A stretch of 64,000 nt of DNA from a virus (IMGVR_UViG_3300023283_000076:1-64000); one strand, 5' to 3'. Numbered from the stretch's first letter, positions 23,083-57,215 are shown. Numbers and translations are program-made. Notes: a model not told the origin generated them from the sequence alone.

Positions 23083-23337
23083 ATGAAAATTGAAGATCAA
23101 AAGAAAATGCATGAACTCTATGCACATTACTGGATGGCTATGGCCACTACTGTTCGTGAAAGTACTTCTAATGATGAACCTTTGACAGAAGATATGCTAA
23201 ACGCTGCATTAGAGTATATTCATATGTTTAAAGAATGTGCAGAAAATCAACAAATAGAAGAAGAACCAGATTTCAGTGTAAAAGCGCCGCCAATAGAGTA
23301 CTATAAAGGAGAGGACCAGTCTTGTTTTATGGGGTGA
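23083..23337 (+). CDS. hypothetical protein
   Basis: GAGG RBS. Confidence 0.6.
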   Translation: MKIEDQKKMHELYAHYWMAMATTVRESTSNDEPLTEDMLNAALEYIHMFKECAENQQIEEEPDFSVKAPPIEYYKGEDQSCFMG

Positions 23338-23409
23338 ATGATGGGACTCGAACCCATAATACGTGTCTGTTTTGGAGTCACGCGCGTCTACCAGTTCCGC
23401 CACACCCAC
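23330..23409 (-). tRNA. pseudo-tRNA (Leu-like body, CCA/CAA anticodon)
   Basis: Acceptor, D and T arms intact; anticodon stem broken by a ~4-nt insertion. Confidence 0.6.
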
Positions 23410-32334: not shown

Positions 32335-32625
32335 AAATATTTGAGTGTGCTATCACGCCAAAGGGATGGTAATGGTAGGGTATGACTTTTACCAATCCTA
32401 CTCATGACATGCCTCGGTCAATTCCAAGGTTCTTACTGTCCCAACTCGGTACCTCCCCCACCCAACTCCCTACACAACATGAAGATGATCGGTCTTCAGA
32501 AGTTGTTTCGGTTTCAATGCGCTATTGATGGTACCGTTTACGCATTTACATTACGTCAGCAAGGGGCATCGGTCCCACTCTTTAAAGGATGGCTGCTTCT
32601 AAGCCCACCTTCTCAAAATATTCTC
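32335..32625 (-). ncRNA. 23S rRNA domain II-like small RNA containing the uL11-binding/GTPase-associated centre
   Basis: GGCTTAGAAGCAGCCATCCTTTAAAGAGTG core plus six further collinear 23S-like blocks; own promoter at 32632-32659; 5' and 3' ends can pair. Confidence 0.8.
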
Positions 32626-56281: not shown

Positions 56282-57215
56282 AAGTTGGAGACAGAGAGTA
56301 ACTGAACCATATGATCCATAGTCATTTTCTCCGGTTGCTCTAGCGTAAATGTCTCCAACTTTTAATTAAGAAAAAAGAAGTACAGTTTTGGGCATGACCG
56401 TGATAGCTCATTGAAAGATGGGTAACGGGAAAGGTGCTACCCACCTTCCCGCCTAGAGAAATTTAGGTTGAGTCATGCAAGCCGAGACTCTGGAAAATTC
56501 GTCCATAATAATTCAGGCGGATTTCAGACGAAACGGGATGGTAGGTTAGACCGAGGCCAACTGGTAAGGTCGTTCTAAGGTGACGCTTAGTACCTACATG
56601 TCAACATCTTGAGCGTTGGAGAGTCAAAGGGTAGTTATTTGGTGTGAGTCTTAGCGGATAAATGCTGAATAGCAATGTTAACGGTGAGCTAAACCTTATC
56701 GTGAAACATGGTCGAAAGTAATCTTAGCGGATGAAACGGCAAACGGTGTTGTCATATTTCGTACCTCAAAAGGGTATGAAGTGATGGAGACGGCACATCG
56801 TTAGGTAGTTTGCAGTCTTTGTAGCTCAATAGGTAGAGCTACCGCCTTATAAGCGGTTTGTTGTAGGTTCAAGTCCTACCAAAGACCCATAATAGATAAC
56901 TGGGTTTAAAATGCAAAAGTCCGTCTCGGTAAAAGGTGAGCAAGGTAGTTAAGTCTACACTGCGAAAGCAGAATGTAGAATCTTTGAGGGCCGCAAGCTT
57001 GATAAGATTTGGTTAGAAGCGCACGTCGAGGGCCGTACAACCTTCGGGGGAAGCTGAAAGCCGAGTAGCCTTTTATGACAGCGCAAACGCTAGCGCTTTA
57101 CAAGACAGCACTACTTGATCGATAGATATTCGCAAGTGTTTTGCGCTTGGTTTATCTGGATAAGAAGTTAACTTTAGGTTTGCAGCCTGAAGGTACGGCG
57201 ACGAAAGGCGATCAA
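56282..57215 (+). ncRNA. large structured RNA locus, GOLLD-like candidate, with embedded tRNA
   Basis: About 930 nt without a credible ORF, dense hairpins, TTGACA-N17-TAGAAT promoter at about 56246-56274. Confidence 0.6.
56815..56889 (+). tRNA. tRNA-Ile(UAU)
   Basis: Cloverleaf, CT-TAT-AA loop; 3' end reads GAC-CCA, so the discriminator base appears missing. Confidence 0.85.

Follow-up and report, generated by a model that had tools for sequence, protein, structure and literature searches.

A phage RNA family mimicking the uL11-binding GTPase-associated centre of 23S rRNA

The locus described here is located on an IMG/VR virus record of 270,653 nt (IMGVR_UViG_3300023283_000076), of which positions 1-64,000, referred to here as the window, represent the whole stretch of DNA under consideration. 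A non-coding RNA of ~281 nt, identified by its match to covariance model R1 (described below) as a member of a family that mimics the GTPase-associated centre (GAC) of 23S rRNA, occupies positions 32338-32618 of the minus strand. The sigma-70-type promoter that had been reported for this RNA by an initial annotation, TTGACA-N16-TATAAT at 32659-32632 (minus), was reproduced with 12 of 12 consensus matches, the TTGACA hexamer being located at 32659-32654 and TATAAT at 32637-32632, separated by a spacer of 16 nt. Transcription is predicted to start near 32625, i.e. ~7 nt ahead of the closing helix of the RNA, and this promoter appears, from its consensus elements, to be a strong, early-type promoter belonging to the RNA itself. 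A second promoter-like site, TTGACA-N17-TATATT with a TG extension, was observed at 32708-32680 (minus) on the basis of a consensus match only (11/12).

No terminator was found between the 3' end of the RNA and the downstream ORF (32323-31925, minus). This ORF, which encodes 132 aa and begins 15 nt downstream of the RNA, exhibited a borderline match to DUF7695 (24.6 bits versus a cut-off of 25), and may be co-transcribed with the RNA. ORFs on the plus strand that overlap the RNA did not match any Pfam or PHROG entry. The RNA is present as a single copy, as no second copy was found in the same genome, and homologues of uL11, bL12 or RelA/SpoT above threshold were not found in the phage's own genome, so that any such partner would have to be provided by the host. 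In total, 16 tRNA genes were identified in the window, including two tRNA-Tyr, four tRNA-Leu and, with unusual anticodons, tRNA-Phe(AAA) (23330-23409, minus) and tRNA-Ile(UAU) (56815-56888, plus). Those nearest to the RNA on the same strand are located 871 nt upstream and 1069 nt downstream, a distance greater than that observed in most members of the family. No RNA sequencing runs containing the window stretch were found; the intact stretch is present in three metagenome runs, all of which belong to one study.

The anatomy of the RNA (all positions on the minus strand; rRNA numbering as in E. coli 23S) was resolved by comparison with the E. coli 23S gene (L170/L171) and with other members of the family. 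A 39-mer quoted in the initial annotation was recovered at its exact position (32614-32576), and its core, GGCUUAGAAGCAGCCAUC(C)UUUAAAGA, was shown to be identical to H43/H44 of the fetched 23S gene at 26 of 27 nt, as had been noted, with position 1080 as the sole difference. As had also been proposed, the two ends of the RNA can pair: U1050-G1055, which corresponds to distal H42 and represents the 5' strand of the closing helix (32617-32612), is complementary to C1104-A1109 (32345-32340) in the exact 23S register, position 1109 through to 1104 pairing with 1050 through to 1055 and U1105-A1109 (32344-32340) constituting the 3' strand. The closing helix is followed by the H43 hairpin (A1057-U1081; 32610-32586), which is supported by sequence and by family covariation and carries the 9-nt loop UUAGAAGCA, and by the junction U1082-A1086 (UUAAA, with the tertiary pair 1082-1086), which together with the 5' strand of H44, G1087-U1090 (GAGU), spans 32585-32577. 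Between 1090 and 1091, H44 is split by an insert domain of 214 nt (32576-32363), closed by the helix GGGA/UCCC (32576-32573 with 32366-32363). A UUUG linker (32362-32359), which is a nearly invariant signature of the family and is absent from real 23S, connects the insert to G1091, and the upper H44 hairpin and 3' strand, G1091-C1104 (GCGUGAUAGCACAC), complete the domain at 32358-32345.

All elements of the GAC fold, i.e. the closing helix 1051-1055/1104-1108, the H43 loop and the H44 loop, are in register, the H44 loop reading GUGAUA in the window copy and GUAAUA in 23S. The nucleotides that, judging by the rRNA counterpart, would form the tertiary contacts are all present, including U1060-A1088, U1082-A1086 and the G1071/C1072 triples with 1091-1100 and 1092-1099. 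In accordance with the initial annotation, position 1058 (G) pairs with position 1080 (C). Regarding the A1067/A1095 site to which that annotation had pointed, A1067 is kept (32600), whereas position 1095 is represented by G (32354); position 1101 is A (32348). The minimum free energy fold of the whole RNA was not unusually stable (z = -1.49), and the tertiary architecture was missed by this prediction.

The extent of the insert required revision, as it had been described as a stem-closed segment of 49 nt (32527-32575) after which H44 resumes as AATAGCGCATTGAAA (32513-27), whereas the true insert encompasses 214 nt and the 3' half of H44 is located at 32358-32345. The internal AAUAGCGCAUUG at 32513-27 was rejected as the 3' half of H44, which it resembles by chance: L061, L032 and L044, the nearest homologues, do not conserve it, it would disrupt the pairs 1091-1100 and 1092-1099, and when the true 3' end was removed, the family model reported a 3'-truncated match and did not accept this segment. 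Similarly, the further blocks in 23S order (H45 to H47) that had been read into the insert did not withstand comparison, as the alignment between the insert and 23S was no better than chance. Gapped local alignment of the insert with 23S positions 1086-1310 scored 30.3, compared with 26.8 +/- 3.2 for shuffled inserts and up to 37.4 for other 23S windows, and the best ungapped match (14 nt) was no better than that of shuffles. The subfamily-conserved insert motifs GUAAGAACC, GGAAUUGACC, GGUAAAAGUC and GGGUGGGGGAGGUA were sought in E. coli 23S and not found, even when one mismatch was tolerated. The description of the RNA as a miniaturised 23S domain II is not supported: the copied part comprises only H42(end)-H43-H44, and the 214-nt middle is devoid of detectable 23S similarity.

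The family was delineated by two pattern scans of IMG/VR, based on a 5' block and a 3' block, which returned 75 and 102 stretches, respectively, only one being genuine 23S. Pairing of the 5' and 3' blocks by nhmmer yielded 139 loci and 101 distinct sequences, with lengths from 86 to ~430 nt. Model R1, built from 33 diverse short phage members and without the window or its close relatives, matched the window RNA over its full length (32338-32618, minus; model positions 1-163 of 163) with a score of 87.7 bits (E about 1e-24 to 4e-27). The features by which the family is defined, namely a helix that interrupts H44 between 1090 and 1091, a UUUG after this helix and then the pattern GCGURRNAGCACAC, are all found in the window RNA. 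The search for homologues in other phages that had initially been suggested, together with a check for covariation, was fruitful, as R1 matched ~150 fetched viral loci, most of these with >70 bits, and the helices covary. The minimal members L085, L092, L118 and L175 are likewise conserved and score 80-88 bits.

Three unrelated cultured phages, i.e. Aeromonas phage 4_4572 and Pseudomonas phages UNO-G1W1 and pf16, were shown to carry the same 41-nt 5' block, as well as a second shared block, CCCUUUGGCGURRUAGCRCAC, downstream of which lies a strand that can pair with the 5' end; this second block also occurs at the 3' end of the window RNA. In addition, R1 matches Cronobacter phage GAP32 and Xanthomonas phage XacN1, and BLAST added Pseudomonas phages Milchi and Astolliot, Xanthomonas phage XaC1, Pectobacterium phage CBB and Paenibacillus phage Pd_22F. 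The hosts of these carrier phages, Pseudomonas, Aeromonas, Xanthomonas, Cronobacter, Pectobacterium and Paenibacillus, represent several phyla, and such diversity is indicative of a target that is universal in bacteria. A search of 185,579 cellular species genomes for the 3' block gave 22 occurrences, of which just 12 represent true members, the majority on MAG contigs dense in tRNA genes; the family is, in effect, phage-specific. One viral contig (L135) harbours two paralogous GAC-mimic RNAs, at 1121-1232 and 2176-2361, which are ~1 kb apart and score 90 and 79 bits, respectively. Nearly all contigs mapped to the pf16 copy represent bacterial 23S proper; the exception, and the sole hint of expression, is a weakly matching 531-nt contig from a wastewater metatranscriptome, which covers only the family-specific 3' module of a pf16-like RNA (L006:1434-1487), and the very deep coverage at 1570-1614 of the pf16 stretch corresponds to genuine bacterial 23S. 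A search of Rfam 15, both at gathering thresholds and at E<=10, revealed no matching family in the region of the window RNA (tRNAs were matched elsewhere, along with two chance snoRNA matches), and no description of a phage GAC, L11 or rRNA-domain mimic was found in the openly searchable full-text literature. These searches agree with the initial statement that no phage RNA of such a type has been described, and this large phage RNA family is apparently undescribed.

Comparison with large-subunit rRNA models, also suggested at the outset, produced a divided outcome: the LSU rRNA model RF02541 did not match anywhere in the whole 270-kb record, while R1 matched authentic GAC sequences of E. coli (56.4 bits) and of the true 23S on L064 (56.9 bits). 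In both cases the match covered exactly positions 1049-1111, with the insert deleted, and this restriction argues for homology to the GAC domain and to nothing else in 23S. Relative to the 23S GAC (E. coli 1051-1108), the phage RNA has the same helices in the same register and the same 9-nt and 6-nt loops, and the nucleotides involved in tertiary contacts are invariant or covarying within the family. Unlike the 23S GAC, it is free-standing and phage-encoded, its H44 is broken at 1090/1091 by a helix or domain plus UUUG, its position 1101 is A instead of U, positions 1096 and 1097 drift, and position 1095 is G in the window copy; furthermore, no H42/uL10 site is conserved in the family. The family signature, comprising G1089, U1090, the inserted helix, the UUUG linker and A1101 (98/101), is absent from real 23S, and was shown to be kept in phages of enterobacteria and Xanthomonas, which do not carry the host-type AAAGAAAGCG...GCUCAC. 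Such retention is indicative of a single evolving RNA family and not of repeated rRNA capture or chimeras.

Base pair counts across the 101 distinct family sequences revealed extensive compensatory variation. Position pair 1058-1080 was represented by GC in 35 sequences, UA in 32, AU in 24 and CG in five, and 1053-1106 by UA (47), CG (22), AU (13) and GC (7), while all four Watson-Crick types were observed at 1052-1107. Pairs 1054-1105 (GC 69, AU 30) and 1064-1074 (CG 94, AU 7) alternated between two types, and the tertiary pair 1082-1086 was found as UA (73), CG (17) or AU (5). Invariant positions in all 101 sequences were G1059, U1060, G1063, G1071, C1072, A1077, A1088, G1091, G1093, U1094, A1098 and C1100. 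In a MAFFT alignment of 33 sequences (A2), 96.7% of cells paired, compared with 78.1% in shuffles, and none of 500 shuffles reached the observed value; two-sided changes were present in 14 of 22 pairs, and sliding the 3' partner columns by one to three positions reduced pairing to 37-56%. This covariation is a mark of selection acting on the entire tertiary fold of the GAC and, together with family conservation, bears out the initial proposal of a selected, free-standing phage mimic of the uL11-binding GAC (23S 1051-1108). Moreover, A1067 is kept in 90 and A1095 in 95 of the 101 sequences, whereas the neighbouring loop positions 1096 and 1097 drift, indicating that something beyond the uL11 C-terminal domain probably reads this cleft; the pattern of conserved positions suggests a ligand at the 1067/1095 cleft.

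The insert domain is variable, ranging across the family from a 15-nt hairpin to ~330 nt, with subfamilies exhibiting their own conserved, covarying helices; plain hairpins are found in the minimal members L085, L092, L118 and L175. The pairs that close the insert covary across the family, and pair i1-j5 is formed in 95%. For the subfamily of the window (the window RNA, L061, L032 and L044), a consensus fold of the four sequences placed two long-range helices in the insert, 32572-32569 with 32444-32441 and 32566-32563 with 32459-32456 (minus). The best-conserved hairpin of this insert, GACA-GUAAGAA-CCUUGG-AAUUGA-CCGAGG-CA-UGUC (32440-32406, minus), is common to L061, L032 and L044, with compensatory changes at six of ten pairs among the four sequences and a conserved GUAAGAA internal loop. 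In another subfamily, the insert ends with the conserved module CACCCCG-GNRA-CGGUAAGG. In L025, L096 and L150, whose RNAs are ~380 nt long, the insert contains a sarcin-ricin loop (SRL)-like hairpin (AGUACGAGAGGA or AGUACGGGAGGAA) at a corresponding position in each case (~nt 265). The stems of this hairpin covary, and these RNAs would, by virtue of this hairpin, unite both halves of the ribosomal factor-binding site; no sarcin-ricin-like motif was found in the window insert. An extra hairpin of ~20-30 nt was observed in the 3' strand of H43 (1077/1078) in L084, L109, L117, L126, L133 and L136, and this second insertion, inside H43, indicates that the mimic tolerates expansion at two defined sites.

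The genomic context of the family is dominated by tRNA genes, with a tRNA gene within 500 nt of the RNA at 84 of 139 loci and on the same strand as the RNA in all 84. In most relatives the RNA sits inside a tRNA gene array, whereas the window RNA is provided with a promoter of its own. In UNO-G1W1 and pf16, the RNA occupies the gap between two tRNA genes to within ~10-50 nt, and this tight spacing suggests that the RNA is released by tRNA-processing enzymes. No conserved protein gene recurred within 4 kb of the RNA (maximum shared, 6/107 loci), and the window and its nearest RNA homologues have no flanking proteins in common. The gene immediately upstream of the XacN1 copy (L200:693-925) is annotated as 2'-5' RNA ligase, and this arrangement may represent an RNA-repair context. 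Short CDSs annotated as 'hypothetical protein' over the RNA in UNO-G1W1 (CDS0126, L002:1571-1678, on the strand opposite to the RNA) and in Milchi (PQ464597.1, 79148-79184) are probably spurious calls on a non-coding RNA.

Several known RNAs share individual properties with this family. The leaders of the L1, L10(L12)4, S8, S15 and L20 operons are likewise extraribosomal RNAs that copy an rRNA protein-binding site, but these act in cis, as parts of mRNAs that precede ribosomal-protein genes, and mimic rRNA loosely, whereas the phage RNA reproduces an entire tertiary domain almost exactly, has no link to a ribosomal-protein gene and is usually located among tRNA genes; no ribosomal-protein gene was found near the window RNA, the downstream ORF being DUF7695. 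6S RNA is also a small RNA that imitates the nucleic-acid ligand of a central machine, yet it is cell-encoded, mimics an open promoter and sequesters RNA polymerase, and thus differs in target and fold. ROOL and GOLLD, whose function is unknown or structural, are likewise found in phages and prophages beside tRNA genes; they are not copies of rRNA, and the window region had no Rfam match to either. The stable RNAs C and D of phage T4 sit in a tRNA cluster. Phage tRNA arrays (PMC10264068, PMC11555353) occupy the same niche and strand as the GAC-mimic RNA, which is likely to be co-transcribed with them and processed by tRNA enzymes, and a common theme may be the shielding of translation from RNA-directed host effectors. 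However, the GAC-mimic RNA is not a tRNA, and copies part of the ribosome itself.

The 58-nt GAC fragment (1051-1108) is capable of autonomous folding and of tight uL11 binding, and its nucleotides A1067 and A1095 line a cleft that is touched by EF-G, the tRNA elbow and thiopeptides; according to published mutagenesis, G at 1095, as found in the window copy, should weaken thiopeptide binding. The interpretation that we favour, though tentatively and with slightly less than even confidence, is that the phage produces a stand-alone, stable RNA that serves a GAC-directed ligand as decoy or pseudo-substrate. Upon transcription, the ends of the RNA would assemble a faithful copy of the GAC, comprising the closing helix, H43 and H44 with their tertiary contacts, in which H44 is opened into a three-way junction bearing the lineage-variable domain. 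The RNA would fold autonomously, like the 58-nt fragment, and would be bound by host uL11, since every nucleotide that makes up the fold or the helix contacted by uL11 is kept. The resulting free uL11-RNA particle would display the 1067/1095 cleft off the ribosome, and could then act as a decoy or pseudo-substrate for whatever normally docks on or attacks the GAC, candidate ligands being a translation-directed toxin or immune effector of the host, or a GAC-recognising factor. As an outcome, phage translation would be kept running. Somewhat less assured still, but of nearly the same standing, is the fuller formulation in which a uL11-loaded RNA replica of the factor docking site, represented by the GAC in every member and additionally by an SRL-like loop in some, lures or inhibits host effectors, or a stress factor, that recognise the GAC.

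Precedents for the individual parts of this decoy reading are available. The ADP-ribosyltransferase toxin Tre23 modifies H44 nt 1095-1098 of the GAC (PMC8661411), and tRNAs encoded by phages are known to counteract defences directed at tRNAs (PMC10264068, PMC11555353). Nucleases of defence systems are known to attack rRNA and tRNA, those that cut rRNA being an emerging group, although an anti-phage effector aimed at the GAC is not known in the searchable literature. The presence in some long members of an SRL-like hairpin, representing the other half of the factor-binding site, was also counted in favour of a decoy. Conversely, a decoy with fewer copies than there are ribosomes would offer little protection from a multi-turnover enzyme, except if it were bound much more tightly or were not turned over, and the G1095 of the window copy falls within the stretch targeted by Tre23. 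Furthermore, the H44 insertion found in every member makes the RNA an imperfect copy, the decoy reading does not account for the variable insert, and the window RNA has no terminator and is followed by an ORF after 15 nt.

Among the alternatives, the one that fares best, although unlikely, is that the RNA titrates uL11 off ribosomes, by which RelA would not be activated and the stringent response would be blunted. The uL11-binding fold appears intact, uL11 is required for RelA activation and the phage does not encode its own RelA/SpoT or uL11, all of which would be compatible with this possibility. RelA, however, is sub-stoichiometric and samples many ribosomes, so that nearly all of the tens of thousands of ribosomes would have to lose their uL11, and the RNA copies needed would be at the level of ribosomes, which makes titration look quantitatively weak. 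In addition, according to published mutagenesis the C-terminal domain of uL11 can bind without A1067 or A1095, and these nucleotides are nonetheless kept much better than 1096 and 1097; the SRL-like hairpins of some members would be useless for uL11 capture, and an extraribosomal role of uL11 is not listed in a recent review.

Less probable again is a scenario in which the RNA, together with uL11, binds a translational GTPase or another GAC-docking factor (such as EF-G, RF3, BipA, HflX or RelA-tRNA) as a 'ribosome in pieces', and thereby reprogrammes host translation instead of absorbing an attack. The combination of a GAC copy and an SRL-like hairpin in one RNA (L025, L096 and L150) and the conservation of the exposed A1067 and A1095 are consistent with such trapping, and isolated GAC and SRL oligonucleotides reportedly bind EF-G in vitro (Munishkin and Wool, 1997). 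Phage translation, however, depends on the same factors, most members, including that of the window, do not contain the SRL-like element, and the closing helix does not have the conserved uL10-binding sequence of H42. At a marginally lower level of plausibility, the GAC module may be only a stable, protein-protected scaffold, with the real activity residing in the lineage-specific insert, as could be envisaged from inserts of 15 nt to ~330 nt whose subfamilies have their own conserved, covarying helices; yet the plain-hairpin members L085, L092, L118 and L175 are conserved (80-88 bits), indicating that the GAC core is sufficient for selection.

It is very improbable that the RNA functions as a cis-acting leader, i.e. 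an rRNA-mimicking 5' UTR through which a ribosomal protein regulates the downstream DUF7695 ORF (32323-31925): the missing terminator, the spacing of 15 nt and the well-known rRNA-mimicking leaders of ribosomal-protein operons are outweighed by the finding that the downstream gene is mostly a tRNA, with no recurrent protein family adjacent and no ribosomal-protein gene nearby. An artefact, in the form of a chance-captured host 23S fragment or an assembly chimera to which the 27 near-identical nt might point, is refuted by the family evidence, as just 58 nt of 23S are present and are split by the insert, RF02541 finds nothing else in the 270-kb record, G1089, U1090, UUUG and A1101 set even the copies in phages of enterobacteria and Xanthomonas apart from host-type rRNA, the RNA recurs, with compensatory changes, on ~150 independent viral contigs and in several cultured phages, and three metagenome runs (one study) contain the stretch intact.

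If the decoy interpretation is correct, the RNA would represent the first viral decoy of an rRNA domain to be known, would point to the existence of GAC-targeting immune systems, and would imply that phages copy a whole functional domain of the ribosome and not tRNAs alone. The family would constitute a new class of structured viral RNA, made testable by its several cultured phage carriers, and would provide a natural 'ribosome in pieces' reagent for studies of uL11, thiopeptide and factor binding. It would also be a strong hint that bacteria attack, or phages have to manipulate, the GAC during infection, a lead that would direct efforts to discover new translation-directed defence systems and to explain what the accessory RNAs in phage tRNA arrays are for.
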